Positions 13,870 to 63,293 of a stretch of DNA of 64,000 nt are shown in pieces; within the stretch, counting starts at the first letter, position 1; every line of letters begins with the position of its first letter. Below the pieces are notes generated by a model, which was not told the origin of the DNA, ran no database searches, and was given only the letters and a program-made list of their open reading frames with translations. A program made the translations under genes and the position numbers. Source of the DNA: an uncultured Gammaproteobacteria bacterium (GTDB lineage Bacteria; Patescibacteriota; Microgenomatia; Daviesbacterales; UBA10151); the NCBI GenBank assembly GCA_964636275.1, contig CAZWRN010000003.1, positions 4,423 to 68,422 on the forward strand. The letters are read 5' to 3'.

Positions 13870-13920
13870 GTGACAGCAAGTTTAATCTACTTGCTCCATC
13901 TATTGAAAAAAATAATAAAA

Positions 13921-14988: not shown

Positions 14989-14989
14989 T

Positions 14990-16198: not shown

Positions 16199-16254
16199 AT
16201 AACTTTCTGCTTGACTCCATACCTGACTTTGTGTCTATATTAAGGCACTACAAA

Positions 16255-17154
16255 ATGGAACGTATAATTTTTGGCCTTGTTTTCGGACTAGTAATTGGCA
16301 GCTTTATTGACTGCATTGCAAACCGTTCATTCACAAAACAATCTTTTTTAGGCCGGTCATTTTGTGACCACTGCAAAAAAACCTTGCCATGGTACACACT
16401 AATACCTGTAATTTCATTTTTGTTTTTACGCGGTAAATGCCATTCATGTAAAGAAAGAATTAGTCCTGAGTCTACACTAGTTGAAATAATTATTGGTCTT
16501 TTAACGGCCTTTATTTTATTTACCTACCTGCCACTTGGCTTTTCATCTTTGCAGTGGGAAGCCCAGTTAATTATTGTATTAGATATTTTGTTCAAACTTT
16601 TTGCCATATATATCTTTTCAATTGTATTTATAACAGATATCAAAAGCGGACTAATACCTGACCGAATCACATACCCGGCAATTATAATTGCGGCCGTTTA
16701 CCTAATTACTAGCACCGCGTTTAAAACTGGGGTGTTTTATTTGTCGCTAAAAAACAGCCAACTTGGCCAGTATCTACTTCCCCCTCATTCAGATTATTTT
16801 TATCGGCATGTGATGAGTTTAATTGAAACAGTCGGCTGGACATTTGCATCAGGTATCGGGGTTGGGTTATTTTTTCTTATTTTAATTTTAGTAACCAAAG
16901 GTCGAGGTATGGGAGGTGGAGATATGAAACTGGGAATATTCATAGGTTTAATTCTTGGTTTTCCAAATTCAGTTGCTGCCATAATGCTGGCCTTCTTACT
17001 GGGTTCTGTATTCGGTATCGTTTTAATTCTTTCTCGAGTCAAAAAATTTGGCCAAACAATCCCATTTGGTCCTTTTTTATCTCTTGCCTCAGTCGTAACA
17101 ATTTTATGGGGAGATCAAATAATCAATTGGTACTTAAATTTTCGACTCTTTTAA
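16255..17154 (+). CDS. pilD: prepilin peptidase (A24 family) PilD
   Basis: N-terminal CxxC...CxxC zinc motif (CDHCKK ... CHSCKE) and a polytopic membrane domain. The ATG at 16255 was preferred over the GTG at 16231. Confidence 0.85.
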   Translation: MERIIFGLVFGLVIGSFIDCIANRSFTKQSFLGRSFCDHCKKTLPWYTLIPVISFLFLRGKCHSCKERISPESTLVEIIIGLLTAFILFTYLPLGFSSLQWEAQLIIVLDILFKLFAIYIFSIVFITDIKSGLIPDRITYPAIIIAAVYLITSTAFKTGVFYLSLKNSQLGQYLLPPHSDYFYRHVMSLIETVGWTFASGIGVGLFFLILILVTKGRGMGGGDMKLGIFIGLILGFPNSVAAIMLAFLLGSVFGIVLILSRVKKFGQTIPFGPFLSLASVVTILWGDQIINWYLNFRLF

Positions 17155-17161
17155 TCCACTC

Positions 17162-17191
17162 ATTGACCCCTTGAAAGAAAACTTTTTATAA
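17162..17191 (+). promoter_or_regulatory. internal promoter TTGACC-N18-TATAAT immediately upstream of the major pilin gene
   Basis: Near-consensus hexamers. Only ~13 nt lie between the -10 element and the pilin ATG and there is no Shine-Dalgarno sequence, so the transcript would be near-leaderless. Confidence 0.4.
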
Positions 17192-17204
17192 TGAAATTAC
17201 AACC

Positions 17205-17741
17205 ATGAAGAAAACAGGTGGATTTACTCTGATAGAGATCATGATCACAATCGCAATTGTGGCAATTACTTTTGGTGTAATTATTACTTCAGCCAGTAGT
17301 GTCAGAAAAAGTGGTCGAGACGGCCAAAGGCAAGCAGATCTACTTTCTTTAAAGTCGGCACTTCAACAATTTTATGCAGATCAAAATTATTTTCCAAACA
17401 ATGCAGGTACTACGACTAGTACAGACATAACTTCATGGACATCACTCACCAACTGTACGGGAGCTCCTACAAATCCCGCATGCACAGTGTCCAAAACATA
17501 TTTACAAACAATTCCAGTTGATCCTTCGGGTGTGACTTATAAATACAAACCTAAATTAGATGGTACTACTACCAACACAGCTTCACAATGCAATGGAACA
17601 ACCAATACCAATCAGTGCCACTACTATATACTTTGTGCAGATATGGAAGGAAATACCCCTCAATCTTCCAGTCAAAATAGCGCCTGTACTGATTCAACGA
17701 ATGGTTTTGGTTCAACCTACAATTACCAGGCTAACCCCTAG
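17205..17741 (+). CDS. type IVa major pilin (prepilin leader MKKTGG|FTLIEIM)
   Basis: Class III signal peptide with G-1/F+1/E+5. The C-terminal domain is Ser/Thr/Asn-rich and has 6 Cys. It sits first in the pilin array and has its own promoter. Confidence 0.8.
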   Translation: MKKTGGFTLIEIMITIAIVAITFGVIITSASSVRKSGRDGQRQADLLSLKSALQQFYADQNYFPNNAGTTTSTDITSWTSLTNCTGAPTNPACTVSKTYLQTIPVDPSGVTYKYKPKLDGTTTNTASQCNGTTNTNQCHYYILCADMEGNTPQSSSQNSACTDSTNGFGSTYNYQANP

Positions 17742-17777
17742 TTCACTTTAGCTTCACTTTATGGTACCGTTTAACTA

Positions 17778-18344
17778 ATGTCCAAATGGTTTTTACCCTT
17801 TTCTACAAAGTTAAACACTCAGTTAGGATTAACACTAATTGAGATCCTTATTGCTATTGTTATCATCAGTCTGATCGGAATAACTTTTTTTCCAAATTTA
17901 AGAAAGTTTAATAGTGATCAACAGTACCGAAATGAGTTAAGCAATTTAAAAAGTTCTATTGAAAGTTCTAAAAATATGTTTAGTTCGGGGACTTACTGTA
18001 CTACTGCTAAACCATCGACGGGTTGGTCTGTCGTAATCAGTATTACATCCAATATTCCCACTTCATTCAATCAAAAAGGTTCATGTATCACATCAGCAGG
18101 GGTGACTACAACTGAAAGTATTAACACCAATCCACTTAGTAATTTAACTTTGCAAAGTTCAAGTTGTGCATCTCCTGTTACCTCTATTGAAATGAAGTTT
18201 GATAAAAATGGATTTAGCTATGCTTGCAATGGAAGTAGTACTTTTATTGCAGGTACATTTAGTATGCAACTACAAAATAAAAATAACACTTCTCAAATTT
18301 CAACAATTTCTATTAATACGTCCGGGACTATCAGTCAAAATTAA
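17778..18344 (+). CDS. minor pilin (prepilin-type, long 17-aa leader, GLTLIEIL)
   Basis: Class III signal motif followed by a hydrophobic helix. Confidence 0.6.
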   Translation: MSKWFLPFSTKLNTQLGLTLIEILIAIVIISLIGITFFPNLRKFNSDQQYRNELSNLKSSIESSKNMFSSGTYCTTAKPSTGWSVVISITSNIPTSFNQKGSCITSAGVTTTESINTNPLSNLTLQSSSCASPVTSIEMKFDKNGFSYACNGSSTFIAGTFSMQLQNKNNTSQISTISINTSGTISQN

Positions 18345-18347
18345 AAC

Positions 18348-18881
18348 ATGAAAGAAGCTGGCCAAACCTTAATTGAACTTATTATCTCAATTGCACTTAT
18401 CCTGATTATCATCACTGGGGTTACAATCCTAACGGTAAAAGGCTTACAAAACAGTCAGTTTTCCCGCAATCAGGTTCAGGCCACCAAACTAGCTCAGGAA
18501 GGAATTGAAAAAATGCGAACCATTAGAGATAACAATTATACAGTTTGTGGATGGTCAGCGAGCGCTAACGCAGTAGCTCCAAATGGACTCTGGAGTGCTG
18601 CTTGTCCCACAGCTTGCAGATACACCATTGAACAAACTTCTGGGACCTGTAATAGTACAATCACCTCATCTTTGTGGATCAAATACACTGCTAGTTCAAC
18701 TACTGTTGAAAATATACCAGTTGGCGGAGTGACATTTAAAAGGTATGTTCTGGTGAATAATGCCAACGACTTGTCTGGAACAGCCTCAACCAATATTAAA
18801 AATATCGATGTAGTTGTTTCTTGGACCGATTCCTCCGGAACTCATGAATCAAAAGTGTCTACAGTCTTAACCAAAATATGA
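18348..18881 (+). CDS. minor pilin (AGQ|TLIELI, atypical +1 residue)
   Basis: Prepilin-like N-terminus with E+5. Confidence 0.55.
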   Translation: MKEAGQTLIELIISIALILIIITGVTILTVKGLQNSQFSRNQVQATKLAQEGIEKMRTIRDNNYTVCGWSASANAVAPNGLWSAACPTACRYTIEQTSGTCNSTITSSLWIKYTASSTTVENIPVGGVTFKRYVLVNNANDLSGTASTNIKNIDVVVSWTDSSGTHESKVSTVLTKI

Positions 18882-19498
18882 TGAAAAAAAGTACCGGTTT
18901 TTCACTAATAGAAGTTCTTGTAACAGTCACAATACTGACCATCATTGGGGTTGCCATATCAACTATTGTGACCAGATCTTTTCAAGGTAACAGTAAAACT
19001 GAACTAATAGGTAATGTTAAACAAAATGGTCAAGCCGCACTTGCTATAATGGAAAAAGACATCAGGGAAAGTGATACTGTCGTCTGTCCAATATCTGGTA
19101 CATCCAATTTAATAACTGTTTTAACTAAAAACCAAGGGATATATATCCGGTTTACGATGGTTCCAGAAGCAAATAATACAAATGGGGCCATTTATAAAGA
19201 TACCTTTACCTTTCAATTTCTACCCGCCAGCCCTGATAAACTTTGTGATCTCAATGTGTTCGCTCTCAATAATCAAGGAACTCAAACAGCTTTGATTGAT
19301 TTTAATTCAAAATCGGGAATATCACTTAAAAATGTTTCGGGCAATGGATTTACTGTGGTTAAAAATGCCGGATTTAAAGATACAGTTAAAGTTCAGTTTG
19401 ACCTTGGTCCTTCAACTACCAATCCGGCAAATTTTGAAGACTCATTAGGCGGAGCAAATAATTCGATTCCATTTCAAACAACCATACAGGTAAGATGA
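18878..19498 (+). CDS. minor pilin (STG|FSLIEVL)
   Basis: Canonical prepilin motif. There is a 4-nt overlap with the genes on either side. Confidence 0.7.
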   Translation: MMKKSTGFSLIEVLVTVTILTIIGVAISTIVTRSFQGNSKTELIGNVKQNGQAALAIMEKDIRESDTVVCPISGTSNLITVLTKNQGIYIRFTMVPEANNTNGAIYKDTFTFQFLPASPDKLCDLNVFALNNQGTQTALIDFNSKSGISLKNVSGNGFTVVKNAGFKDTVKVQFDLGPSTTNPANFEDSLGGANNSIPFQTTIQVR

Positions 19499-20430
19499 AA
19501 AACAACCAGTCAGGACAAATAATTGTGGTCTTATTACTAGTTATGCTAGTTGTACTTTCAGTTGTTTTGGCTATTACCCAACGTTCAACAACTGATTTGT
19601 CATCATCTACTGAAACTGAACAATCAACCAGAGCATATTCAGCAGCAGAAGCTGGTCTGGAACAAGCTTTACAAAGAGGAACCACTAATCCAGGAGCATC
19701 CCCCATTGCTTCTCAAACATTCAACCTATCAGGTAATTCATCTTCAGCCACTATCGTTAATTCAGGATTACTACCAGTCGCTGGAAGTCAGATTGCTATT
19801 GAATATCCACCCGTAGGCAGAGAGTCAATTGCTCAGTTTTGGCTAGTAGATGCTACTACTCCAGCCAATAACTATAACCGCAATACTTATGCTATCTACT
19901 TCGGAAATCCTACTTCTATAAAAGCTTATGATGATGCAGCTGGAGCCGGATCTCAAAACATTACCCCAGCGATTGAGGTTACTACGGTAAAACAAACGAC
20001 CAATGGATCAGCAGTCACTTATGAAACTCAAAAAAATTTCTATGACGCTCTTGCATCTCGAGCAGTTACAAATAAATTTGTTACCACCACATCCCCCTCG
20101 ACACCTCTTACATGTGGAGGACAAACAGTAGCAACAATTTTGAAAAACTCTAGCGAATTTCTCTGTCGGGTCAATGTCACAATTTTAAACTGTGATTTAT
20201 CAAATTGTGTACCACAATTGGTAAGAGTTCGTTTACTTTATGGTAATGTAAATCACAAAATAGCACTGGCCCCAGCTAGTGGTGCTTCACTGCCGCCTCA
20301 AGTTGAGCTATATACCTCAACGGGCAAAGCAGGTCAAAGTATTAAAACTTTACAAGTTTTTCGAATTAAAGATATGCTCCCCCCCTGGCTCGATTTTGCT
20401 ATTTTTTCTGTCAATGACATTGTGAAATGA
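19495..20430 (+). CDS. PilX/GspK-like minor pilin lacking Glu+5 (SGQIIVV)
   Basis: Pilin-like N-terminal helix without E5, and a PilX_N-like AEAGLEQAL segment; 311 aa. Confidence 0.5.
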   Translation: MKNNQSGQIIVVLLLVMLVVLSVVLAITQRSTTDLSSSTETEQSTRAYSAAEAGLEQALQRGTTNPGASPIASQTFNLSGNSSSATIVNSGLLPVAGSQIAIEYPPVGRESIAQFWLVDATTPANNYNRNTYAIYFGNPTSIKAYDDAAGAGSQNITPAIEVTTVKQTTNGSAVTYETQKNFYDALASRAVTNKFVTTTSPSTPLTCGGQTVATILKNSSEFLCRVNVTILNCDLSNCVPQLVRVRLLYGNVNHKIALAPASGASLPPQVELYTSTGKAGQSIKTLQVFRIKDMLPPWLDFAIFSVNDIVK

Positions 20431-20843
20431 AAAAAATAATTGGCTTCAACTACAATAGAGGGTTTTCTTTAATTGAGCTTTTATTAGTCATTTTAGTGGC
20501 TGGGATGGTTTTAGTTACCTTAACCAATCTGACTCCAGTATTTAATCTGCTTCAAAATAGCAGTCGTGAAAATATTGCGCGCCAAATAGTATCAAAAAGG
20601 ATAGAAGATATTCGTACCCAGGGTTATGATAATTTAGCAAATGGGACAAACACTTTTACTGACACCCGACTTACTCAATTGCCTCAAGCAAATGCAGCTA
20701 CCACTATTGAAGACTGTCCAACAGATATTTGCATTCATAGTGAACCAATCAAAAAAGTAACAATCCAGGTAGATTGGGTTGAAAACGATAAATCTCAGAG
20801 TTTTAGTATTACTACTTTAGTCTCTAAAGGGGGTATTCGATGA
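20427..20843 (+). CDS. minor pilin (RG|FSLIELL)
   Basis: Prepilin motif; 138 aa. Confidence 0.65.
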   Translation: MKKIIGFNYNRGFSLIELLLVILVAGMVLVTLTNLTPVFNLLQNSSRENIARQIVSKRIEDIRTQGYDNLANGTNTFTDTRLTQLPQANAATTIEDCPTDICIHSEPIKKVTIQVDWVENDKSQSFSITTLVSKGGIR

Positions 20844-21424
20844 CTCGAAAACTACAAAAAGGATTTACTTTAATTGAGATTTTGATAGTTATGGCGTGTT
20901 CTGCAATCATTGGTACAATTTTAGTAACAATTTTAGTTCAGGGGAGCTCTATTTTTAGTGATCAAACCACCAAAGTAAATCAAAATCTTTCACTCAATAG
21001 TGCTAGCAATCAAATAGATCAAACTGTCCAATATGCTTCTCAAATATCAGCTAATTACATCGACGGATCTACTACCTACACCACCAGTGACAAAGTATTA
21101 ATTGGTAAACTTCCTGCTATTGATTCCTCAGGTAATGTTATTGAAAGTAAATTTGACACATTTATACTGATGCAAGATCCGGTAAACAGCGCCTATTTAA
21201 AAAAGCTGATTATTCCTGATCTTTTAAGTAGCAGAAAAAGTGAAGATATGACTTTACTAAACCAAATGACCTTTCTGCAATTTGTATATCTCAACGATAG
21301 TGCGGTGGTAACTACCCCTCAAACCGCTTCAAAAATAGATTTTGTTATTAAAGTGGCCGAAAAATCCGGTAACGGTATCAAAGAAAGCTCCATTAGCGGG
21401 CGAATAAATTTAAAAAATATATGA
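20840..21424 (+). CDS. minor pilin (KG|FTLIEIL)
   Basis: Prepilin motif; 194 aa. Confidence 0.7.
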   Translation: MTRKLQKGFTLIEILIVMACSAIIGTILVTILVQGSSIFSDQTTKVNQNLSLNSASNQIDQTVQYASQISANYIDGSTTYTTSDKVLIGKLPAIDSSGNVIESKFDTFILMQDPVNSAYLKKLIIPDLLSSRKSEDMTLLNQMTFLQFVYLNDSAVVTTPQTASKIDFVIKVAEKSGNGIKESSISGRINLKNI

Positions 21425-23247
21425 AAATCAGCCTATCTGAAAATGGACAAACTATCATCTTTGCTCTAGTTGTACTTACAGTGGTAATTGTAGGTGTTTT
21501 GGTGATGATTTCCGGATCTTTCACCTCAAAACAAAACAGTCGCTATAGTTTGGATTCACTTGATGCTTCCTCAATTGCTGAAGCCGGAATAGATAAAGCC
21601 GTGGCAACACTCAATAAAACAGCTGGTCAGTATAATGGCGAAACTGAAACTCAGCTTGGAAATGGTTCATATATCGTAAAAATCACTCCGATCGATGCCA
21701 ACACTTTTCAGGTTGAATCAACTGGATACGTCCCGTCTGTCCAAAATTATAAATCAAAACGAACAGTTTCTGTCCGGGTGGAAAGAGGTGATGGTATGGC
21801 ATTTGCCTATGGGGTGCAAGTTGGGGATGGCGGCTTTAGTATGAGTGGCGGGTCCCGTATTAACGGTTCTGTTTATTCAAATAACGATATTAATATCTCT
21901 GGTGGATCAATAATTACCGGAGATGCTTATGTGGCAGGAGGAACTCAACCGACTGCTGACCAATTATCCACCTGTACCCCGCCAAATTGTCTTGATTATT
22001 TATTTGGTAAAACAGTTTCAGGAAATACAATTTTAGATTTAGCCCAAAGTTTCCGGCCATCTACAACTGCGGCTATCAATAAAGTGGCGGTAAATGTCAA
22101 AAAGTTTGGCTCTCCACCCAATGTCACCGTTCGCATATTAGGTGATAATAATGGTAAACCCAACAAAAATGATGTACGAACCTCAGGTACATTGAATGCA
22201 AACTTAGCTAGTTCACAGTATGGATTTGTTGAGATTGGACTTCTGCCTTCAGCCTCGTCGACTTTAACAGCCAATAATGTATATTGGATTGTCATTGATA
22301 CATCATCTGATGCAACAAATTACTGGAGCTGGCAAATTGACTCTTTAAGCGGATATACCACTGGTTCAGCCAGTTGGTCTCCCAACTGGCAGGCAAATGG
22401 AAATCCAGTTTGGAACCCTGTCTCTGGAGATTTGCTCTTTAAAACATTTATGGGTGGCAAGATCAACAAAATTGCTGGTATAGGATCCTCAACTATTAAC
22501 GGAAACGCATATGCCAATACCTTAACTGGTGACAATCCATCTGCCCTTCAAATAGGACTGGATGCTTATTATCAAACTGAATCAAGTATTAGAGTTTCTG
22601 GACAAAACTGTTCAAATAATACTCACTGTCATCCGGGATCACCTGATCTGCCAGCTTTACCACTACCTGTTTCAGAAGCCAATATCGCTGAATGGAAATC
22701 ATTTGCCGATGATGTAGTCCAAACAGGTGATCTAAATATACAATGGCCATGCACCACTACATTAGAAAAGAAAAAATATGTCGGCAACGTCACAGTTGGT
22801 GGCGGTTGTAGTATACAAATCGACACTCCTGTTTGGATTACCGGAAATCTTACATTAGGTGGTGGAGCCAGTGTCAAACTTAAAACAAGTTATGGTTCTA
22901 GTTCAGGGATCATTGTAGTAGATGGGGTTACATCACTTGCCGGAGGAAGTACATTAAAAGGCTCAGGAAGTACGGGATCTTATATGATGGTAATTTCAAC
23001 TAACAATAACCTGGTTAGTCCTTATGCGATTAGCATAAATGGTGGAAACAGTTCTTCTATTTTATATGCCCCCTATGGAGCAATCTATTTATCAGGCGGA
23101 AGTAATTTAAGAGAAGCATCGGCATATAAAGTTGTGATGGACGGTGGGGCTATTCTAACCTACGAAACAGGTGTTGCAAATCCATTTTTTTCATCTGGGC
23201 CTTCTGGATCATTTAGTGTTGTTAAAGGAACCTACCAAAGTAAATAA
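21421..23247 (+). CDS. large pilin-like protein (E5-less N-terminal helix NGQTIIFAL plus PilX_N-like segment) fused to a ~550-aa Gly/Ser-rich, beta-helix-like domain; candidate pilus tip adhesin
   Basis: N-terminal pilin-like TM helix and AEAGIDKAV segment. Repetitive GGS...SGG...GG blocks are spread through the C-terminal region. Confidence 0.5.
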   Translation: MKISLSENGQTIIFALVVLTVVIVGVLVMISGSFTSKQNSRYSLDSLDASSIAEAGIDKAVATLNKTAGQYNGETETQLGNGSYIVKITPIDANTFQVESTGYVPSVQNYKSKRTVSVRVERGDGMAFAYGVQVGDGGFSMSGGSRINGSVYSNNDINISGGSIITGDAYVAGGTQPTADQLSTCTPPNCLDYLFGKTVSGNTILDLAQSFRPSTTAAINKVAVNVKKFGSPPNVTVRILGDNNGKPNKNDVRTSGTLNANLASSQYGFVEIGLLPSASSTLTANNVYWIVIDTSSDATNYWSWQIDSLSGYTTGSASWSPNWQANGNPVWNPVSGDLLFKTFMGGKINKIAGIGSSTINGNAYANTLTGDNPSALQIGLDAYYQTESSIRVSGQNCSNNTHCHPGSPDLPALPLPVSEANIAEWKSFADDVVQTGDLNIQWPCTTTLEKKKYVGNVTVGGGCSIQIDTPVWITGNLTLGGGASVKLKTSYGSSSGIIVVDGVTSLAGGSTLKGSGSTGSYMMVISTNNNLVSPYAISINGGNSSSILYAPYGAIYLSGGSNLREASAYKVVMDGGAILTYETGVANPFFSSGPSGSFSVVKGTYQSK

Positions 23248-23299
23248 TTCAGTAGATCTAGTATAAATATTCAATCTGTTCTACAATAAAACTGATCAA

Positions 23300-23333
23300 A
23301 TCAGAGTAAGTATCTGCTCTCATCTGATTTTAA
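23300..23333 (+). terminator. possible weak intrinsic terminator or attenuator between the pilin block and pilM
   Basis: Imperfect stem AAATCAGAG...CTCTcaTCTGATTT followed by TTTT. Confidence 0.25.
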
Positions 23334-23340
23334 CCGAATT

Positions 23341-24381
23341 ATGGCTGCCCAAAACCGTGTTGGTATTGATATTGGTGTCTCATCTATAAAGCTGGCTGTG
23401 CTCTCAAAAAACCAGGAAAATGCTCGTTTAATATCCCTTGGCCATATCCCCTCACCCATTCCAGGCATAGCATCGGAAGCAGAACTTGACTTAGAAGCAG
23501 TAGCAACAGCTTTAAAAAAATTATATGAGGAGGTCAATCCTCCAACTCGTGATGTAGCAGTCGCTTTACCCGAATCTAAGATATTCACCCGAGTGATTTA
23601 CGATTTACCATATTTGTCTGATGATGAACTAGCTCAAGCGATCCGTTATGCTGCAGAAGAGTTTGTCCCTATGCCTATGAAAGATGTCAATTTGTATTAT
23701 CAAGTCATCTTTCGTTCACCAAAAAAGGAACCAAACAGTCGTACTGTAGTTTTTGTAGTTGCAGCTCCAAAAAATCTGATTGATAAGTACTTAAAGGTGT
23801 TGCAAAGTGCCAACTTAAGGGTAGTTGCAATTGAAACTGAAGTTCTAGCTACAGCTAGATCTCTGGTAACTTTTAATACTTTTTCACCTACTACCCTGAT
23901 TATTCAACTTGGCGCATCAAATACTGACTATGCTGTCATATCAGAAGGGTTAATTCTACTTACCAGATCTATAGCCACAGGTGGTAATACTCTGACACGA
24001 TTAATTGCTCAAAATTTTAATTTTGAAGGTGTTCAGGCTGAAGAATATAAAAAAGTATATGGTGTCCTGGAAGATCAATTAGAAGGTAAATTATTTAGAA
24101 CTTTAAAACCGGTTATTGATGTGATCGTTACGGAGGCTAAAAGAGTAATACTGGCTCATGAGATGCAAAACAAACAGAGACCTATTAAACGCGTCGTTTT
24201 AACTGGAGGTGGTGCTAGAATGCCTGGTCTAGTTAGGTATTTTGCCAGTTTCTTAGGTCTCGAAGTCGCTGAAGCTGACCCTTGGGGAGCAGTCGAAGTT
24301 GATCCAACTTTAAAACAGAAACTAACAGCCGAAGCACCTTTTTACTCTGTTGCCGTAGGTTTAGCCCTTAAAGATGTCTAA
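23341..24381 (+). CDS. pilM: type IV pilus assembly protein PilM (actin-like ATPase fold)
   Basis: N-terminal GIDIGVSSIKLAV and an FtsA/PilM-like architecture. Confidence 0.85.
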   Translation: MAAQNRVGIDIGVSSIKLAVLSKNQENARLISLGHIPSPIPGIASEAELDLEAVATALKKLYEEVNPPTRDVAVALPESKIFTRVIYDLPYLSDDELAQAIRYAAEEFVPMPMKDVNLYYQVIFRSPKKEPNSRTVVFVVAAPKNLIDKYLKVLQSANLRVVAIETEVLATARSLVTFNTFSPTTLIIQLGASNTDYAVISEGLILLTRSIATGGNTLTRLIAQNFNFEGVQAEEYKKVYGVLEDQLEGKLFRTLKPVIDVIVTEAKRVILAHEMQNKQRPIKRVVLTGGGARMPGLVRYFASFLGLEVAEADPWGAVEVDPTLKQKLTAEAPFYSVAVGLALKDV

Positions 24382-24392
24382 ATAAACCACTT

Positions 24393-24956
24393 ATGGATCG
24401 TATCTCCATTAATTTATTACCAATAGATTTAAAAGAAAACAAAAAACTGCTTTATAAAAAAAAGCTCGTAAATTTAATCAGCTCAATAACTGTGGTTATA
24501 CTTATAGTAGTGACAGGTATATTGGTCATACTGTCGGTAATCCAAAATAGTCAGGTTGGTAAGGAAGAAACAGATATTTCAAGGCTTGAAAACACACTCT
24601 CATCCTTGAAAGAAAAAGAAGCATCTGTAGTGATATTAAAAAAAAGATTGGCCAGCATATCTCAAGTTATCAAACATAAATATCCACAGACGGATTCATT
24701 TCTTTTAGTCTCATCACTCTTGCCAGAAAATGTAACACTTCAAAATTTTGTTGCTGAACAGCCCAACACAGTAACTCTTCAAGGCATCGCCGCCAACGCA
24801 GCATCACTGCAGCATTTTTTTGACAATTTAACCGATCCAAAAATCAATGAGGGTAAGATTACAAAAACAGTTATTTCCAATCTAAACAGAGGCAATTCCC
24901 CGCAACTTAACTTTGATTTAGAGGTGTCAGTCAAGGTAGAAGGAGGGAATAAATAA
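24393..24956 (+). CDS. pilN: type IV pilus assembly protein PilN (single TM + periplasmic domain)
   Basis: Position after pilM, N-terminal TM segment, and size. Confidence 0.55.
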   Translation: MDRISINLLPIDLKENKKLLYKKKLVNLISSITVVILIVVTGILVILSVIQNSQVGKEETDISRLENTLSSLKEKEASVVILKKRLASISQVIKHKYPQTDSFLLVSSLLPENVTLQNFVAEQPNTVTLQGIAANAASLQHFFDNLTDPKINEGKITKTVISNLNRGNSPQLNFDLEVSVKVEGGNK

Positions 24957-25697
24957 ATGGATCAGGTATTAAAAACTTTTAGACAGTATCAGGTTATTAT
25001 ACGTCGCAATCCTCTCTATGCTAAATACAGTCTTTTTATCATCCCAGCCATAACTATAATTATAAGCGTGTTAATTCTTGTATTAGTAACTATTCCTCAG
25101 ACGTTTAAACTCATTAAAAATAATCAGCTGGTTGAAGAACTAAAACAGCAAAAAACTGCATATCAATCTAAAATTACAACACTCAATAAAGTTGACACAA
25201 CCCAATATAAAACAGATTTAAACAACGTTCTAACGATCCTGCCAAACGAGAAAGAAATCCCCTCCGCAATTAATAGTATTTTACAAGTGATATCTCTATC
25301 CGGTCTTACTCTAACAAATTTTTCAATAGGTAATAGTGGAACACCAATAAATGGAGTTGAAAATTTTATTGTAAGTATTGATGTAACCGGATCTGCAAAC
25401 CAAATTAAAGAGTTGATAAATTTCGCGGATCGATCTTCAAGATTGATCAAAATTACCAGTCTAAGTTTGAACTATGGTTCAGACGGGGTTTCCCAAACGA
25501 CTATTGATGTTTTGGTTTTCTATGCTCCTCTGGATACCTCAATCAAAACAGATGATTCACAAGCCATAACTCTACTTTCTTCTGATGATCAAACTTTACT
25601 TGATAAAATCAAACAAAACACCCAAAGTATATCTTCATCTCAAACTACCCCCCCTATCCTAGATAGCCCGACAGGCAAAGATGATCCATTTAATTAA
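24957..25697 (+). CDS. pilO: type IV pilus assembly protein PilO-like
   Basis: Position, single TM segment, coiled-coil. Confidence 0.5.
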   Translation: MDQVLKTFRQYQVIIRRNPLYAKYSLFIIPAITIIISVLILVLVTIPQTFKLIKNNQLVEELKQQKTAYQSKITTLNKVDTTQYKTDLNNVLTILPNEKEIPSAINSILQVISLSGLTLTNFSIGNSGTPINGVENFIVSIDVTGSANQIKELINFADRSSRLIKITSLSLNYGSDGVSQTTIDVLVFYAPLDTSIKTDDSQAITLLSSDDQTLLDKIKQNTQSISSSQTTPPILDSPTGKDDPFN

Positions 25698-32785: not shown

Positions 32786-33463
32786 TTAAGGCAAAGTAGT
32801 AAAGGTATTATCTCCTGAAGTTGTGGAGTTATTGGCATTATCTTTAGATGTGACCCTGAAATGATAAGTTGTATTTGGCTCTAAATCAGTAATTTCCAGT
32901 GAATGAGAACTTTTTTTGTCACTGCTATCTTTATTGGAACTATAGGAAGTATCTTTCCCGTACTCGACTTTACTATCTGAGTCTTCATTGGTCTTCCATT
33001 CAATAGTGACCTTATTATTTCCAATGTTTACCGATTTTATCTCTGACAAAACCGGGCCACTAGTATCGGTATTTGAAGGCGAATTACTTGGACTGGGGCT
33101 TGGGCTGGGACTAGGTGAAGGTAAAGGACTGGGTGACAATGATGGTGACACTACAGGGCTTGGAGATATCTTAGCTGTTGGAGAAGGTGACTGAGTAGGT
33201 ATACTCTGTGGTTTATCCGGCCCTATAGCAGCCGCCTGTTCAGATATGATTCCTGGTTGCTGGGTTTGAGAATTTTTTGATTGCGCTCCTAAAACAGAAG
33301 CATAATCAGTAGGAGTGGGACTGGGTAAACCCTGAGGTGTATCAGATCCCATAGAAGCTAGAAACACGACCAAACCAAAAACAGACAAAATTGCTGCTGT
33401 TATTGCTACAGAATAGATATATATATTGCTATTTTTTAGTTCGCTCTTTAACTGATTCCACAT
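32786..33463 (-). CDS. membrane-anchored Pro/Ser-rich protein with a C-terminal fibronectin-III-like domain
   Basis: N-terminal TM segment, (SP)n low-complexity linker, then an FN3-like region (TIEWKT...YHFRVTSKDNANN). Confidence 0.6.
   Translation of the reverse strand: MWNQLKSELKNSNIYIYSVAITAAILSVFGLVVFLASMGSDTPQGLPSPTPTDYASVLGAQSKNSQTQQPGIISEQAAAIGPDKPQSIPTQSPSPTAKISPSPVVSPSLSPSPLPSPSPSPSPSPSNSPSNTDTSGPVLSEIKSVNIGNNKVTIEWKTNEDSDSKVEYGKDTSYSSNKDSSDKKSSHSLEITDLEPNTTYHFRVTSKDNANNSTTSGDNTFTTLP
33060..33180 (-). repeat. SPSPSP-encoding low-complexity nucleotide repeat
   Basis: Reiterated gg(a/g)ct(g/a)gg units on the + strand. Confidence 0.6.
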
Positions 33464-33534: not shown

Positions 33535-33741
33535 CTATTTTTTAGCGCAGATTTTACATTCAGATTTATGAGTCATCAGTACATACACACCTGAAGCGCC
33601 AACTAAAAGATATACAATACTCTCCAAACCAGGCATTCCACCCAGCAACATATTTACTAAATTGTAGCCCAAAGCAGTCAGACCCCAGTTGATAGCACCA
33701 ACTGCAGTTAAAAGGAAGGCAACCATATGCAGCATTTTCAT
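33535..33741 (-). CDS. DUF378-family small membrane protein
   Basis: LLTAVGAINWGL ... LVGASGVY two-TM pattern. A strong AAGGAGGTGA Shine-Dalgarno sequence lies 7 nt upstream. Confidence 0.7.
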   Translation of the reverse strand: MKMLHMVAFLLTAVGAINWGLTALGYNLVNMLLGGMPGLESIVYLLVGASGVYVLMTHKSECKICAKK

Positions 33742-33873: not shown

Positions 33874-34062
33874 ATGTGTTACAACTGCGGATGCCATATG
33901 CCAGAAGACGATATGGGACTTGGCTCGGCCGGTAAAGACCCTAAAGGTAAATCCATAACCGAAGAAACTTTCAAAGCAGCAGCTGAATCTCAGGGAATGA
34001 CCGTTAAAGAAGCAAAAGAAGAAACTTTAAAATTACTTAAAAAAGAGCTTGGTTATAAATAA
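33874..34062 (+). CDS. small Cys-motif protein (MCYNCGCH..., 62 aa)
   Basis: N-terminal CxxCxC, then a charged helical tail. No Shine-Dalgarno sequence, so coding status is uncertain. Confidence 0.3.
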   Translation: MCYNCGCHMPEDDMGLGSAGKDPKGKSITEETFKAAAESQGMTVKEAKEETLKLLKKELGYK

Positions 34063-34083: not shown

Positions 34084-35169
34084 CTATTCTATATCGCAGC
34101 GGTTCTCACGATAGTTTTTGGTATATCCGATATTACAACTCCAACCATCTGTGTTCATCTCTAAATGCGCATTGTCTGGTAAACTTACTTTCCGGCAAAC
34201 TTGAGAACCAAAATCTTTGATATATCCTAATTTACAAGTCCAAGAGCTTCCTTGCCAGACTATATGCTCAGTCGTAAACTTCTCACATTTATCACCTTTT
34301 CTGATATAACTACTAATACAACTCCAGCCATCAATCGATGAATTATCAAGTCTCGCATTTTCAGGGACTACGACCTTCACACACTTTCTAAGCTCTTCAT
34401 TTCGTTTATAGCCTGATTCACAGTAAAACTGGCTCCCATGTTCATAAAATGTGCCATGCTCAACTACTTCTACTTTGACGCATCGATCACTTTGTTTATC
34501 GTATCCGGGATCACACTCAAATCCTTCTGCGGTGACTTGACCATAATGCGGTACAAAGATTGATTCACAGCTATTTTTTTCACGATTTTTCACAAAACCT
34601 TTATTACATTGCCAATCATTACCTAAATACGTCAAATGAGCATTAGCAGGGATTTCAAACTTTTTACATTCACTCCCCTCTTTTCTAAATTGATTGTTAC
34701 AGTACCAGTCAAAACCCTGGTCAAAAAATTTAGCATCCTTAGGCAGTTCAACTTTGACACATTTGTCTTCAATTCTCTGATAAGTAGCTATACACGTCCA
34801 ATCATTACCAGTCGCTTCAAGCACCGCATTTTCTGGCAATCTTAATTCGTTACACTGATCATTTTCTCGGATATAGCCCCGTTCACAAACAAAATCATCA
34901 CCTGAATAATTAAGTTTAGCATGCTCTGGAATCACTACTTTTTGACATAGATTTTGAGAAGCAATTTTTTTATACCCTACCTGACAGAGCCAATCTGTTT
35001 TTTGAGAGTTTAAAACACCATTCTCCGGTATGTTTATCTTTTCACACTCCCCACTCGCAAAGTTAAACTTTTGCTCCGAAGGACAGCTGACAGCGAAAGT
35101 AGGATGAGGAAATATAAAATTTATAACGACAATAAAAATTATAATAGTTATATTTAGTAAGTAATTCAT
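34084..35169 (-). CDS. secreted Cys-rich tandem-repeat protein (about 10 repeats of 31-33 aa, two Cys each), translationally coupled to the RND pump gene
   Basis: Signal-peptide-like N-terminus (MNYLLNITIIIFIVVINF). Repeats follow the pattern C-x-K/E-V-x-I/L-P-x-N/H-A-x-L-x5-DW-x-C-x2-GY. The ATG overlaps the RND stop codon (ATGA). Confidence 0.7.
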   Translation of the reverse strand: MNYLLNITIIIFIVVINFIFPHPTFAVSCPSEQKFNFASGECEKINIPENGVLNSQKTDWLCQVGYKKIASQNLCQKVVIPEHAKLNYSGDDFVCERGYIRENDQCNELRLPENAVLEATGNDWTCIATYQRIEDKCVKVELPKDAKFFDQGFDWYCNNQFRKEGSECKKFEIPANAHLTYLGNDWQCNKGFVKNREKNSCESIFVPHYGQVTAEGFECDPGYDKQSDRCVKVEVVEHGTFYEHGSQFYCESGYKRNEELRKCVKVVVPENARLDNSSIDGWSCISSYIRKGDKCEKFTTEHIVWQGSSWTCKLGYIKDFGSQVCRKVSLPDNAHLEMNTDGWSCNIGYTKNYRENRCDIE

Positions 35170-38100
35170 TTGCGAGCGGGTGCTTTGGGAGCAAAGATCA
35201 AATAATAAACCACGGGGATGAAAAACAACATTATAGTTCCAGAGAAAGTTAAACCCGCGATGATCGCTCCTCCCAAACCTCTCCACAGAGGATCCGAGAT
35301 AGTTATTGGAATCAGTCCAGCAATGGTACAGACTGAAGTTAAAGCAATTGGCTCAAGTCGGGAGGCTGCTGCATCAGCAACCGACTCTGAAAACTCCATA
35401 CCAGATTCCTGATTGATCAAAATCTTATCAACCACCAAGATCGAATTTTTCACCACTATTCCGAATAAAGCTAAAATACCGATCAAAGCTGGGAATGACA
35501 GCGGAATCTGAGCCATTGCAAAGATAATAAATACACCAGATATAGAAAGTGGGATAACAAGCATGACTATCAATGCCCGTCTAAAAGATTTAAACTGCAG
35601 CACCATCGTGATAATAATCAGTAAAAATGACAAAATCATCGCTCGTAGTATCGAGTTTACGGATTCCTGATTTTCTTCATTCACCCCACCGGTAGCCCAA
35701 CCATATCCAGTCGGTAAATTGAGTGAGTTCGCATACTCTTCTAGTTTGGTGTTAATATCAGCTAGCACATATCCTTCTTGAACACCAGCTGAAACAGAGA
35801 TCGTTCTTTTACCATCTTCTCGAGTAATCAACGTTGGATTGGTAGCAAGCTCCAGTTTACCCAAAGCTGAAAGATGCACTGTTCCACCGGTTTGGGTTGG
35901 AATAACAAGTGTTGTGATATCTTCCACAGTTTGGGTTCCAGATCCCAAACGGATAGTGACATCTTCAGTCAGATCTTGGTCACCAGAAAACTTTAGCTCA
36001 TCTGCCTCAAAACCAGAGGCATACAATCGTAGCCAAAAACCAAGCTGATCAACCGTGATATTATTTTCAGCCAGCTTAGCTCGATCTGGTACAAAAGTCA
36101 GCTTACTCGTGCCTGGTTTAATGGATTTATTGATATTATTTACACCAGCTTGCTGTGACAAATAATCCTGAATACTGTTGGCGTATTGATCCAGTGTCTT
36201 CAGATCCGGTCCAAATAGCTTGATCTGTAAATCTGCACCAGCTGGTGGACCTCCTGAAATCTCCTGAACAGAAAGAGTACCTTTAGTATAATCTGCAAAG
36301 TTATTGCGCAAATGTTGGGCTATCTCGGCGGAAGTCTGATCACGCTCTTCATATAAAGCCACTGAATAAAGGAAACTGTTTGCTCCTGACCCAGACGGCC
36401 CACCGAAATCAGCTCCATAACCTCTCCCAAGCTCCAACGTAACGGTTTCCATGGCCGGAGTAGATTTAAACCGCTCCAACAATCCCAGAGCCTCTTGTTT
36501 TGCAGTCTGAATATTTGTTCCAGAAGGCAGCTCTACTGATACGTAAATGGTATTTTCATCTGAGCCTGGGAAAAATTCTGACTTTACTAGACCGAGTGGA
36601 ACCAAAGCATATGAAAATAGTGAAAAGATAACCACCATAATTATGGTGTTTCTTCTGGCTTTTTTAGAGACCAGGATCCGATGAATAAGTTTGTTGTAGG
36701 AACGTTCGATCCCATGGAAACTAATTAATCCATTGTCCATCACCTGACTAAGTCGAGCTTTAGCACCAGGTGAGCGTAGAAAACCTTTGGTGAGTGCTCC
36801 AAGTAAAGCATCCCGTACCAGATACACAATCAAAACAAATGCCACCAACACAATCAGCTGTGGTACTAGCAAAGTTCCTTTGGGAATCAGGAAGTAAAAA
36901 CCGGCAACTATGCCCAGCAACAACAATACTCGAGTTAGTACTACGACTCGAAAAGGTATTTGCGGCTTCAACAGGAAGATCATTAAAGGCAAAATAATAA
37001 ATAAAGCCACAAAAATTGAAGCAATCAGGGTCGCCGATACGATAATAGGGATTGGTTTAATAAACTCACCAATGATTCCGGTTGAAAGAAGCAACGGAAT
37101 AAATGCCCAAACGGTCGTAATCGTGGTAGTTAAAATAGCTACCCAAAAATCTTTCCATACCAACAATCCGGTTTGCAAAGGGGTAAATTTACCTGAACGG
37201 TAATAAGCTGTCATAGCTGAAATCACCACGATTGCATCATCTACCAAAAGTCCTAGCGACAAAAGAAGTGAAAAAGTAGCCAAAAATGACAAAGCAATCC
37301 CAGTAAACTGCATGACAACAAAGGTGATTAAAAAGGTCAGTGGAATAGATAACATTGAAACAAATGCCTGCCTGATACCTAGGAAAAGCAAAAGAACAAT
37401 AAATACTAGTGTGATCACAATTGTGATATCACGCTGCAGATGATCAAAAGATTCGTCCACCTGTTCAGCAGTATTTACGATAGTAAAAACCTGAAAACCA
37501 TTACCACTGTGCGCCAATTTTTCCTTTACTTTTTCTTCAGCCTCTTTATTGGCTACATCAAAATTAACCCCTGAAACTCGATACACGGAAAAGGTCACTG
37601 CCGAACTTACTTCATGATCATGCAGCAAGAAAGACTCTGTTTGGTCTGGTTTTGAGATCTCCCTAATCTCAGCAATTTCTACCAATGACACAACTTGGCC
37701 ATCTAAATTAACTTTGGTTTCACGCAGCTGATCAATCGAACTGACCGCAGGATCAATAGTCAAAGAAAATATAGAGTTATCAGTTTTTACATTTCCTGCA
37801 GGATATGAACTAATCGAGCTTTTAATTGCTCCCATTAAAACCTGTGGGTTGACTCCATAAGTTGTAATTGCCGTGGGCTTAACTACGATCTGAACCTCTT
37901 GTTCATCAAGTCCGGTGATCTCAACATTATCAATACTGGCTAGATCTTCCAGCTCTTTCTGCAAATCTCGAGAAAATCGGATCAGACTTCCCCGATCTTT
38001 AGCTCCTGCCAAAGAAAACGTCCAAATAGGTTGATTTTCAAAATCAAGTTTTTGAACATTTGGATCCAAAGCATCTTCTGGTAAGTCGCCAACTGCATCC

Positions 38101-38489
38101 ACTGCCGACTGCACATCTGATTTAGCTTTATCAGCATCATATCCAGATTCAAATTCGATTTGAACTACAGATGCAGATTCACGAGATGTTGAAGTTACCG
38201 TCTTTACTCCATCTACACCTCTCACTGCATCCTCTACCGGTACAGTGATCAGTGATTCAATATCAGCTGGATTTGCTCCCGGTAATACAGTGGAAATAAT
38301 AACAATCGGTATCTTAATTTCTGGATTGAGGGTTCGCGGTAGAGCAAAGTAGGCCTGGGTACCAAAAGCAATAACACCCAAGACGATTAATACCAAAAAT
38401 CGGAGGTTGGTTAGATAACTGGCAACCCACCCAGCTAGCAACCTTGGATCAAATTTGAGTTTGCTTAAATACGTTGATGCAGTATCCAT
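35166..38489 (-). CDS. RND-superfamily efflux transporter (AcrB/HAE-like, 12 TM)
   Basis: 1107 aa, the typical 2 x (1 + 5 TM) topology, and large periplasmic loops. Confidence 0.9.
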   Translation of the reverse strand: MDTASTYLSKLKFDPRLLAGWVASYLTNLRFLVLIVLGVIAFGTQAYFALPRTLNPEIKIPIVIISTVLPGANPADIESLITVPVEDAVRGVDGVKTVTSTSRESASVVQIEFESGYDADKAKSDVQSAVDAVGDLPEDALDPNVQKLDFENQPIWTFSLAGAKDRGSLIRFSRDLQKELEDLASIDNVEITGLDEQEVQIVVKPTAITTYGVNPQVLMGAIKSSISSYPAGNVKTDNSIFSLTIDPAVSSIDQLRETKVNLDGQVVSLVEIAEIREISKPDQTESFLLHDHEVSSAVTFSVYRVSGVNFDVANKEAEEKVKEKLAHSGNGFQVFTIVNTAEQVDESFDHLQRDITIVITLVFIVLLLFLGIRQAFVSMLSIPLTFLITFVVMQFTGIALSFLATFSLLLSLGLLVDDAIVVISAMTAYYRSGKFTPLQTGLLVWKDFWVAILTTTITTVWAFIPLLLSTGIIGEFIKPIPIIVSATLIASIFVALFIILPLMIFLLKPQIPFRVVVLTRVLLLLGIVAGFYFLIPKGTLLVPQLIVLVAFVLIVYLVRDALLGALTKGFLRSPGAKARLSQVMDNGLISFHGIERSYNKLIHRILVSKKARRNTIIMVVIFSLFSYALVPLGLVKSEFFPGSDENTIYVSVELPSGTNIQTAKQEALGLLERFKSTPAMETVTLELGRGYGADFGGPSGSGANSFLYSVALYEERDQTSAEIAQHLRNNFADYTKGTLSVQEISGGPPAGADLQIKLFGPDLKTLDQYANSIQDYLSQQAGVNNINKSIKPGTSKLTFVPDRAKLAENNITVDQLGFWLRLYASGFEADELKFSGDQDLTEDVTIRLGSGTQTVEDITTLVIPTQTGGTVHLSALGKLELATNPTLITREDGKRTISVSAGVQEGYVLADINTKLEEYANSLNLPTGYGWATGGVNEENQESVNSILRAMILSFLLIIITMVLQFKSFRRALIVMLVIPLSISGVFIIFAMAQIPLSFPALIGILALFGIVVKNSILVVDKILINQESGMEFSESVADAAASRLEPIALTSVCTIAGLIPITISDPLWRGLGGAIIAGLTFSGTIMLFFIPVVYYLIFAPKAPARK

Positions 38490-38618: not shown

Positions 38619-40079
38619 TTAAGGTTTTACTTGTACTTGATCTCCTTCAACCACAGTTCGAGATAAAATCACTTCATCATTGGCTCCGATCCCATCGGTT
38701 ACTGCTACAAAACGACCCTGTACTTGTCCCAACTGGATTTTTCTAGATTTAGCTTTACCTTCACTAACAATATAAATCACGGACTCATCCTGAGTCTGAA
38801 AAATAGCATCAAGTGGGATAAATGGCACCACTGAGTTTGTATCTGGAGCACCAACTGGAATATCAATTTGAACAAATGATTTATCAGTAAAAAGCTCTTT
38901 ATATTCATCACCCAATACATATAACACTGAATACATTTGGCCGTTTGTGGCTTCAGAGGAAACATAGTATGGAGCCAAATCCAAAGTCTTTTCACCAATA
39001 TGAATAGTGGATTTTTCAAATTTCGAAATATTTTTAGCTGTTGATGCAGGCACCAAGGCATTTAAAACAATATCATCAGTGGTTTGATTTAAAGTAGCTA
39101 AGACGGTTCCAGGATTTACCGATTCTCCTACTCGAACATGAATTCGCTCAATAGTAGCGGCAAAAGGAGCCGCCGGATACATTTGAGCTTCAGTAATTTG
39201 CGACGCTAAGAGAGACAGATTGGAGATTTGTCTATTTGCCTCTAAAGATTTTTCTTGGATATCTAGATTTTTTAAAGTAATTTCCCTTCCCAAATCAGAC
39301 AATTGAGCTGGTGGTCGATCAGAAGCTGATTGATATTCAGCTTGACGAATTCCCTGTTTCAACTGATTGATAGCACCTAAAAATTGAGCTTTTTGACCAT
39401 TTAAACTAGCCTGAGCGGAACCAGTTGATTGCGAAATCTGTGCATCCAGAGAAGCTAACAAAGACTCATTTAAATCCAGCAAAGACCGAGATTCTTCTAA
39501 AGACCTGTTGGCAATATCACGAAGCTGATCAGCATTAGCATCGGTTCTTTCAGCAACTTCTCTTTGTTTTGAGATTAGATCTTTCTGAGTATCATATGTT
39601 TGATTGGAAAGATTATTTTGTGTCTGAGCAATTTGTCTGGCCACTGACAAAGCGTTTCCACCTTGGTAATTTGAGGCTAAACCGATCAGATTTTGACCTT
39701 TGCTGACAACATCTCCTTCAATTACATTGATATATGAAACAATACCAGGCATCTGGGCTACTACTTTAATCACTCCACTTTTTTCAACCTGAGCCTGTGT
39801 AGAGATTTTTGGTGAAGAACCTATTTTGAAAGTTTGAACAGATTTAACAGTCGCCTGTTTTGGTTGCTCTGTAGGTTTGGCTTTAAAAACAGTACTTCCT
39901 AACACAATCAAAGCTAATAAAATGATAAGTGATAAAAGAAAACTAACAAATGGACGCCTGGAAATAAATTTTGAAATTCTTTGAACACTTTTCTTACCCA
40001 AATAACCAATTCTGGAAAAAAAAGTTTTTACTTTAAGTAAGGATTGATTCATTGATAATTGTTTGTTTGAATTTGCCAT
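38619..40079 (-). CDS. periplasmic adaptor / membrane fusion protein (HlyD-like) of the RND pump
   Basis: N-terminal TM segment, biotin-lipoyl-like segments, and a long coiled-coil. Confidence 0.8.
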   Translation of the reverse strand: MANSNKQLSMNQSLLKVKTFFSRIGYLGKKSVQRISKFISRRPFVSFLLSLIILLALIVLGSTVFKAKPTEQPKQATVKSVQTFKIGSSPKISTQAQVEKSGVIKVVAQMPGIVSYINVIEGDVVSKGQNLIGLASNYQGGNALSVARQIAQTQNNLSNQTYDTQKDLISKQREVAERTDANADQLRDIANRSLEESRSLLDLNESLLASLDAQISQSTGSAQASLNGQKAQFLGAINQLKQGIRQAEYQSASDRPPAQLSDLGREITLKNLDIQEKSLEANRQISNLSLLASQITEAQMYPAAPFAATIERIHVRVGESVNPGTVLATLNQTTDDIVLNALVPASTAKNISKFEKSTIHIGEKTLDLAPYYVSSEATNGQMYSVLYVLGDEYKELFTDKSFVQIDIPVGAPDTNSVVPFIPLDAIFQTQDESVIYIVSEGKAKSRKIQLGQVQGRFVAVTDGIGANDEVILSRTVVEGDQVQVKP

Positions 40080-40116: not shown

Positions 40117-40240
40117 TATTTTGTACCACGTCAAGATAGAAGAGCCAGTATATATTATTATAGGTCCAAAGTCAATCTCAGTTGTCTTCATTTACGGATC
40201 TATTGCGCCTCAGACTCATTTTTACTACAATTACCGCGTT

Positions 40241-56083: not shown

Positions 56084-56132
56084 AATTCGAAATATTATAC
56101 TTCCAAATGGCCAAAGCTACAAGATTATATTC

Positions 56133-56933: not shown

Positions 56934-56938
56934 AAGGA

Positions 56939-63174: not shown

Positions 63175-63210
63175 GAATTATATAAAAAAGCAGATTTAAA
63201 AAAAATTTAG

Positions 63211-63293
63211 TCCGGAGAATAGGATTTGAACCTATGTAGCCGAAAGGCGACAGATTTACAGTCTGTTGTGATTGACCACTCCACCATCTCCGG
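63211..63293 (-). tRNA. tRNA-Tyr (anticodon GTA), type II with a long variable arm; CCA not encoded
   Basis: Cloverleaf: acceptor CCGGAGA/TCTCCGG, anticodon stem ACAGA/TCTGT with loop CTGTAAA, variable arm, T-arm ATAGG-TTCAAAT-CCTAT. Confidence 0.8.

Follow-up and report, generated by a model that had tools for sequence, protein, structure and literature searches.

What kind of protein is encoded by a long cysteine-rich tandem repeat that lies directly behind an efflux permease gene, and does it belong to the pump? The question is raised by the repeat protein (REP, the name used here) encoded on the minus strand at 34084–35169 of a 64,000-nucleotide stretch of contig CAZWRN010000003.1, the whole of which we refer to as the window. 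We favour, with moderate confidence, the reading that REP is a Sec-secreted, all-beta, rod-like protein built of ten and a half degenerate epidermal growth factor (EGF)-like modules of the Pfam family PF12946, and that its gene is the last of an operon encoding a membrane-fusion protein (MFP), a resistance-nodulation-division (RND) permease and REP.

The repeat and its family

REP matches PF12946 (EGF_MSP1_1, 'MSP1 EGF domain 1') with a score of 42.8 bits (E=5.4e-11; gathering score 27) in five stretches, the best of which pairs aa 136–168 with profile positions 1–36 of 37, and this is the only Pfam family returned. The relatives of REP behave similarly. Precomputed PF12946 matches are present on 27 of 31 word-index homologues, and an exhaustive profile search covering 1.84 billion cluster representatives puts the size of the family at 1583 representatives at E≤0.001 (198 at E≤1e-30), with PF12946 matched by 91 of the top 120 (best E=5.6e-23). 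A preliminary description of this region had placed the repeat in no named family, and this cannot be maintained given a PF12946 match above the gathering score that most homologues share; the only annotated function of that family concerns Plasmodium MSP1. An exact-sequence look-up of the REP protein returned no record, NCBIfam models gave zero matches to it, and no literature on bacterial PF12946 members was found.

So that the result would not depend on the Pfam model, a unit profile (A2) was made from bacterial sequences alone and run against all PDB sequences. Its best match is Plasmodium knowlesi MSP1-19 (1n1i, E=0.0016), with 'NVPENAACYRYLDGTEEWRCLLGFKEVGGKC' aligned opposite 'evPeNAhl..nysGndWeCnrGYkkngdkC', and two more MSP1 chains follow at E=0.075–0.15; no canonical EGF chain appears at E<10. 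Only the unit profile gave matches of this kind, as phmmer with full-length REP returned nothing from the PDB sequences even at E<10, and a two-unit profile search returned only unnamed 60–118-aa fragments. The similarity of A2 to MSP1 EGF domain 1 therefore appears borderline but specific, and it is independent of the Pfam model.

The A2–MSP1 alignment places a bacterial Leu on the third Cys of MSP1 and a Trp on the position of the fourth, which is already Trp in P. knowlesi; in the REP modules the former C2, C3 and C4 positions are occupied by Leu/Ile, Leu and Trp respectively, and the Cys residues retained are C5 and C6. Because the first EGF-like domain lacks the second disulfide in the MSP1-19 crystal structures of P. 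cynomolgi and P. knowlesi (PMC5052570), the bacterial modules would extend a reduction already visible in MSP1. With two Cys per period, REP has neither the six Cys of MSP1 EGF1 nor the four found in P. knowlesi and P. cynomolgi, and among the classical EGF disulfides (C1–C3, C2–C4 and C5–C6) only a C5–C6-equivalent pair is possible, so that REP is a reduced variant within PF12946.

REP and MSP1-19 EGF1 (PDB 1n1i, 1b9w) have in common the pattern VPENA...W-x-C-x-x-G-[FY]-K-x-x-G-x-K-C, the spacing from C1 to Pro, the Trp at C4 as in P. knowlesi, and the C5–C6 hairpin. They differ in the number of disulfides: one in each REP module, against three in MSP1 EGF1, reduced to two in that of P. knowlesi and P. 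cynomolgi (PMC5052570). The erythrocyte-invasion function of MSP1 is not transferable to REP. MSP1 has a single EGF1 copy beside a second EGF domain in a glycosylphosphatidylinositol-anchored eukaryotic protein, whereas REP is a bacterial secreted protein with ten abutting copies that share boundary Cys residues.

The REP open reading frame (ORF) codes for 361 aa, with its stop codon at 34084–34086. The ATG at 35169 is taken as the start because orthologues align from this internal Met; a GTG at 35286, which gives the longest ORF (400 aa), was rejected as a start because the gene would then reach 120 nt into the RND gene. A Sec-type signal peptide occupies aa 1–26 (35092–35169, minus strand; MNYLLNITIIIFIVVINFIFPHPTFA followed by VS), comprising a hydrophobic N-terminus and then small residues at -3/-1 (TFA, VQA, IFA, VSA and VNA), a pattern conserved in the orthologue alignment from which we infer that the leader is cleavable. 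The possibility that REP is a lipoprotein was rejected, as a lipobox is not conserved in the same alignment.

REP contains 22 Cys residues, and the gaps between them alternate strictly between 11–13 and 17–21 residues. The array (aa 29–358; nt 34096–35085) consists of ten full units of 29–33 aa and one extra N-terminal Cys hairpin, in good agreement with the preliminary description of a tandem repeat of ~32 aa with two Cys per period and about ten copies: the peptides quoted there are all present in the minus-strand translation of 34084–35169, and its unit consensus is recovered in a MAFFT alignment of the ten units. That description gave no strand, and of its span (34090–34990) the location is right but the upper limit falls ~95 nt short of 35085, so excluding the first unit (starting at nt 35046) and the half-unit that precedes it. 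The half-module, recognised by Cys spacing as a lone hairpin (C29-x12-C42; 35044–35085, minus strand), is found in only 9 of 25 orthologues. The ten full modules (34096–35043, minus strand) follow the register xKVxLPENAxLx3-5GxDWxCxxGYx6-8C, or more fully xKVx[LIV]PENAxLx3-5GxDWxCxxGYx6-8C. All on the minus strand, these are module 1 (aa 43–75, nt 34945–35043), module 2 (aa 76–106, nt 34852–34944), module 3 (aa 107–137, nt 34759–34851), module 4 (aa 138–168, nt 34666–34758), module 5 (aa 169–201, nt 34567–34665), module 6 (aa 202–230, nt 34480–34566), module 7 (aa 231–263, nt 34381–34479), module 8 (aa 264–295, nt 34285–34380), module 9 (aa 296–325, nt 34195–34284) and module 10 (aa 326–358, nt 34096–34194).

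The ten units share a mean pairwise identity of 33% (range 20–50%) in the MAFFT alignment. With a hidden Markov model built solely from units of distant, non-orthologous proteins, mature REP scores 224.4 bits and the best of 1000 residue shuffles 6.5 bits. Tandem Repeats Finder detects no DNA-level repeat inside the repeat-coding region, its sole match being an AT-rich, period 9 sequence (35113–35152) in the signal-peptide part, and individual modules are closer to the orthologous module (43–72% identity) than to their neighbours within REP (33%). Because of these two observations the array is taken as old, as the preliminary description had proposed from the divergence of the nucleotide repeats and as is confirmed here, and as positionally stable. 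The C-terminal six modules are kept in all 25 of 25 orthologues, and only N-terminal modules are gained or lost.

Disulfide register and predicted structure

Two Cys per period amount to one disulfide's worth, and to this extent the preliminary proposal of one disulfide per repeat is sound; the partners are another matter, as the pair that we favour straddles the boundary of the unit defined there. Mature REP starts and ends with a short Cys pair, as do all of its orthologues, five of which open with a linker that has no Cys, the 'second' Cys coming next. An array-end test was made with 152 family members having at least three units, 151 of which could be scored at each end: the upstream Cys is missing from the first unit in 112 of 151 arrays, and a closing Cys is present after the last unit in 149 of 151. 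When the unit profile is compared with PDB sequences, the short Cys pair aligns with C5–C6 of the MSP1 EGF domain. Because arrays start and end with the short pair, because their ends are asymmetric in this way, and because of the alignment to EGF C5–C6, the single disulfide of each repeat is very probably formed by the short CxxGYx6-8C pair, equivalent to C5–C6 of EGF. A disulfide between the two Cys of the originally proposed unit, which are 20 residues apart, conflicts with both the asymmetry of the array ends and the C5–C6 alignment.

Eleven disulfides are predicted in this register by comparison among family members, namely C29–C42, C62–C75, C95–C106, C126–C137, C157–C168, C188–C201, C219–C230, C250–C263, C284–C295, C312–C325 and C345–C358. 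Each module would have lost the C1–C3 and C2–C4 disulfides of classical EGF and kept only the C5–C6 hairpin staple (CxxGYx6-8C). The closing Cys would occupy the place of C1 in the following module, so that the modules would abut without linkers.

AlphaFold2 models full-length REP from a 26-sequence alignment with a mean pLDDT of 84.5 and a pTM of 0.39, a value in keeping with an elongated chain. The model is all-beta except for the signal-peptide helix, with four short strands per module, and a three-module fragment (aa 95–201) is predicted with higher scores (pLDDT 90.1, pTM 0.58). The closing Cys lies within a beta-strand that runs into the next module, and pLDDT remains at 80–90 across the module boundaries; because the strand crosses the boundary and confidence holds there, the model suggests that REP is a continuous rod. 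The preliminary description of an extracellular solenoid or beads-on-a-string protein is consistent with the Sec signal peptide in being extracytoplasmic, but separate beads are unlikely given the continuity of the modelled strand and of the pLDDT across the boundaries.

Foldseek comparison of the full model with the PDB places EGF arrays first, with NEL/NELL2 (E=2e-5 to 1e-3), Pvs25, Pfs25, Pfs28, DLL1 and MSP1-19, and the same classes lead for the three-module fragment (TM-scores 0.2–0.4). REP resembles tandem EGF arrays such as NELL1/2, Notch/Delta and Pvs25/Pfs25 in being elongated and composed of small disulfide-stapled beta-hairpin modules, although the structural match is weak (TM 0.1–0.36; E no lower than 2e-5 with the full protein or 1e-2 with the fragment) and those arrays have six Cys per module, often calcium sites, and linkers between modules.

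The putative MFP-RND-REP operon

Directly upstream of REP is the gene for an AcrB-like RND permease of 1107 aa (35166–38489, minus strand; PF00873, E=8.4e-152), for which NCBIfam returns only generic multidrug RND permease models, far below their cutoffs. The two genes share an ATGA overlap at 35166–35169 (minus strand), seen in the sequence and the ORF coordinates, in which the RND stop codon TGA (35168–35166) overlaps the REP start codon ATG (35169–35167). This points to translational coupling of RND and REP, and an abutting or overlapping arrangement is also present in two of the related loci (L007 and L061).

The first gene of the putative operon encodes a membrane-fusion (periplasmic adaptor) protein of 486 aa (38619–40079, minus strand) with HlyD_3 and Biotin_lipoyl_2 matches; it scores 78 bits with TIGR01730 (RND_mfp), below cutoff, and its orthologues carry YknX_C. 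The lipoyl-like halves of MFP are at approximately aa 97–135 and 303–331, and the ~165-residue insert that separates them presumably folds as an alpha-helical hairpin, one of greater length than that of AcrA-type adaptors. Upstream of MFP a consensus scan finds a weak promoter-like site (TTGACT-17-TATACT; 40147–40175, minus strand) with 10 of 12 consensus matches, and promoter-like sites are no more numerous in the region than expected from shuffles. No terminator-like site was found after REP on the REP strand.

REP follows directly after RND on the same strand in all 13 of the 13 clade loci fetched through REP homologues. An RND-seeded metagenome scan gave 26 loci, and where the RND is 65–74% identical and downstream DNA is available REP follows in four of four. 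The MFP–RND pair itself is kept in all related loci with upstream DNA. REP is a clade-specific extension of an older pump operon of two genes.

This arrangement recalls the tripartite operons of AcrAB-TolC and MexAB-OprM, in which MFP and RND genes are followed by that of an outer-membrane factor, in having three co-directional genes of which the third is exported and starts in overlap with the RND stop codon. It differs in that the third gene product would be a thin Cys-stapled rod and not a TolC/OEP channel, in that related MFP–RND pairs have no third gene, and in that the host of REP is probably monoderm. No OEP-type (TolC/OEP) gene was seen among the annotated ORFs of the window, the third gene of the operon matching PF12946 only, and the literature on RND pumps in Patescibacteria and the candidate phyla radiation yielded nothing on such an operon.

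Several observations weigh against an EGF-like rod tied to this pump. The metagenome scan includes 16 loci in which an RND at 47–60% identity has downstream DNA and the MFP–RND pair is kept with no REP, nor any consistent downstream gene, and the pump can therefore do without REP. Within the REP-bearing clade synteny extends over the whole neighbourhood, which has ATP synthase genes on one side and, on the other, the genes for DUF378, TyrRS and an FN3 protein; the linkage of REP and RND is real, but common descent, and not selection to keep the genes together, may explain part of it. The ~48 homologues that come from Proteobacteria and other phyla do not adjoin RND genes, and a search of 49 such loci gave no recurrent neighbour apart from spurious antisense ORFs, GroES/EL and a few CRP-like regulators. 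On the structural side, the match to EGF is weak, with no Foldseek match of the three-module fragment in the PDB at E≤0.001, and TNFR and furin-like Cys-rich repeats are among the matches of that fragment.

Homologues outside the clade include proteins of Steroidobacter, Phyllobacterium, Kordiimonas and Parvibaculum with the pattern PENA-x-L...W-x-C-x-R-G-Y, which are like REP in the repeat, in the combination of signal peptide and array, and in the closing-Cys rule. They differ in being encoded by stand-alone genes with no RND or recurrent neighbour and in having slightly longer units (22-residue linkers), some with PG_binding_1 or other N-terminal regions. Among the top 120 family representatives, nine have the peptidoglycan-binding domain PG_binding_1 joined to the repeat, a combination that fits an envelope location for the family. 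A further relative (P0031, 244 aa) has a different architecture, with three units, an N-terminal region matching PF25314 and a Cys-rich C-terminal tail. A trio of genes encoding Aminotran_5, CDP-alcohol phosphatidyltransferase and NTP_transferase/DUF6564 proteins (55358–58129, minus strand), 21 kb from REP in the window, also lies directly upstream of a distant REP homologue (P0029) in L062 (4559–7348) and in L063; no such neighbour recurs among the other non-clade REP loci, and the sharing is probably a coincidence.

Closer to REP, two genes lie downstream at 32786–33463 and 33535–33741 (minus strand), one encoding a small membrane protein of the DUF378 type and one a secreted protein (the FN3 protein) whose linker is rich in Pro and Ser (SPSPSPSPSPS) and whose C-terminal domain is FN3/purple-acid-phosphatase-N-like. 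The DUF378 gene stays near REP in most clade loci of sufficient length, and the gene for the FN3 protein does so in the closer loci. A 62-aa ORF (33874–34062, plus strand) is convergent on REP; its product begins MCYNCGCHMPEDD and has a CxxCxC motif but no Pfam match, and a 54-aa gene is present at its position in related loci L001 and L002.

Possible roles of REP and its host

As to function, we tentatively suggest that REP is a structural or adaptor rod of the cell envelope acting together with the MFP–RND exporter of its clade; where a TolC-type outer-membrane channel is lacking, it could provide an extracytoplasmic spacer or docking element. The analysis establishes the PF12946 membership, the signal peptide, the register of the repeat and the synteny; a physical or functional link between REP and the pump is what we infer from the gene adjacency and the ATGA overlap. 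It is considerably more speculative that a lineage of Patescibacteria recruited an EGF-like rod as a third extracytoplasmic component of an MFP–RND system, wall-spanning or host-contacting, in the operon slot of TolC.

The main alternative, which we consider somewhat less likely, is that REP has no part in the pump and is a secreted or surface protein with a binding function of its own, for example an adhesin or a protein for host contact in an episymbiont; its gene would merely ride on the MFP–RND transcript, and its rod would present a binding tip. This would account for the related lineages that have the pump without REP, and for an array of 7–11 hairpins that varies N-terminally and is most conserved in its C-terminal module (GYTKNYRENRC). 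REP also diverges faster than RND in the same loci (46–53% versus 74–75% identity), but no faster than MFP or TyrRS. In eukaryotes, EGF arrays usually serve for interaction or as spacers, and the analogy is a general one in favour of binding. The start–stop overlap and the unbroken position after RND, wherever the RND of the clade has downstream DNA, argue instead for a connection with the pump, and neither Pfam nor the orthologue alignment reveals an anchoring domain, sortase signal or lipobox in REP.

It is very improbable that REP binds metal as a periplasmic-type chaperone or buffer with a CusF-like role, its 22 Cys serving as thiolate ligands for a heavy-metal RND. Such a role would suit a Cys-rich protein beside an RND gene, and the RND does match the CusA/CzcA model TIGR00914 (258 bits) and the MFP weakly matches CzcB-type models; yet the RND scores higher with multidrug models, all of these scores are far below cutoffs, and the Cys residues are at EGF C5/C6 positions in predicted hairpins, always in even, paired numbers, with no conserved His, Met or CxxC ligand motif in the orthologue alignment. 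We give equally little credence to the preliminary picture as a whole, an unnamed family of beads on a string each closed by a disulfide within the unit: the two Cys per period, the lack of an NCBIfam model and the silence of the literature on bacterial proteins would suit it, but the Pfam match contradicts it, the parity and asymmetry of the Cys residues favour the 11–13-residue pair, and model confidence is high across module boundaries. A reading of the modules as degenerate repeats of the Sushi/CCP (complement control protein) type is scarcely credible, as the weak unit-profile matches (E=0.02–0.1) through the W/Y-x-C-x-x-G-Y-x-x-x-G motif span only ~13 residues and are weaker than that to MSP1, CCP domains have ~60 aa, four Cys and an invariant Trp compared with two Cys in a period of 29–33 aa in REP, Pfam gives PF12946 only, and Foldseek puts EGF arrays first.

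The host is a low-GC (~38%), small-genome bacterium, probably of the Patescibacteria, this being the likelier assignment because of the gene content and the YknX-type adaptor. The closest loci (L007–L012) are deposited as 'uncultured Gammaproteobacteria bacterium' (five third-party-annotated metagenome-assembled genomes) or 'Patescibacteria group bacterium' (one), and the Gammaproteobacteria labels may be wrong, since the gene content looks like that of Patescibacteria. The window also codes for enolase, Mur ligases, GyrB, TrmD, RNase III, RecG, TyrRS and an ATP synthase operon. A compact type IV pilus locus (12160–25697, plus strand) encodes PilB-like and PilT-like ATPases, PilC (T2SSF), the prepilin peptidase PilD, PilM and at least one N-methyl pilin (17205–17741), together with several unannotated ORFs of 170–310 aa and a 608-aa ORF (21421–23247) without a Pfam match; no secretin was seen among the ORFs scanned in this locus. 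The only Rfam/ARAGORN match in the 64-kb window is a tRNA-Tyr (GTA) at 63210–63293 (minus strand), so that the window offers no rRNA on which to base a taxonomic placement.

The repeat and most of its relatives were already captured by Pfam, and this is not a new family. What is corrected is a gap in annotation, as ~1600 bacterial clusters at 50% identity stand under the name of a malaria antigen without a bacterial literature. What is new is the module register and probable disulfide map of bacterial PF12946 proteins, the finding that among solved structures the bacterial units are closest by sequence to MSP1 EGF domain 1, and the clade-specific attachment of REP to an RND operon. The likeness to the motif of MSP1 EGF domain 1 raises the question of whether it reflects common descent, transfer or convergence. 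If the link between REP and the pump is functional, REP would be an accessory part of efflux systems that has gone unrecognised in Patescibacteria, a group with a poorly known envelope biology, and if REP is indeed a third component of the exporter, it would represent a new RND export architecture in a cell without an outer membrane.

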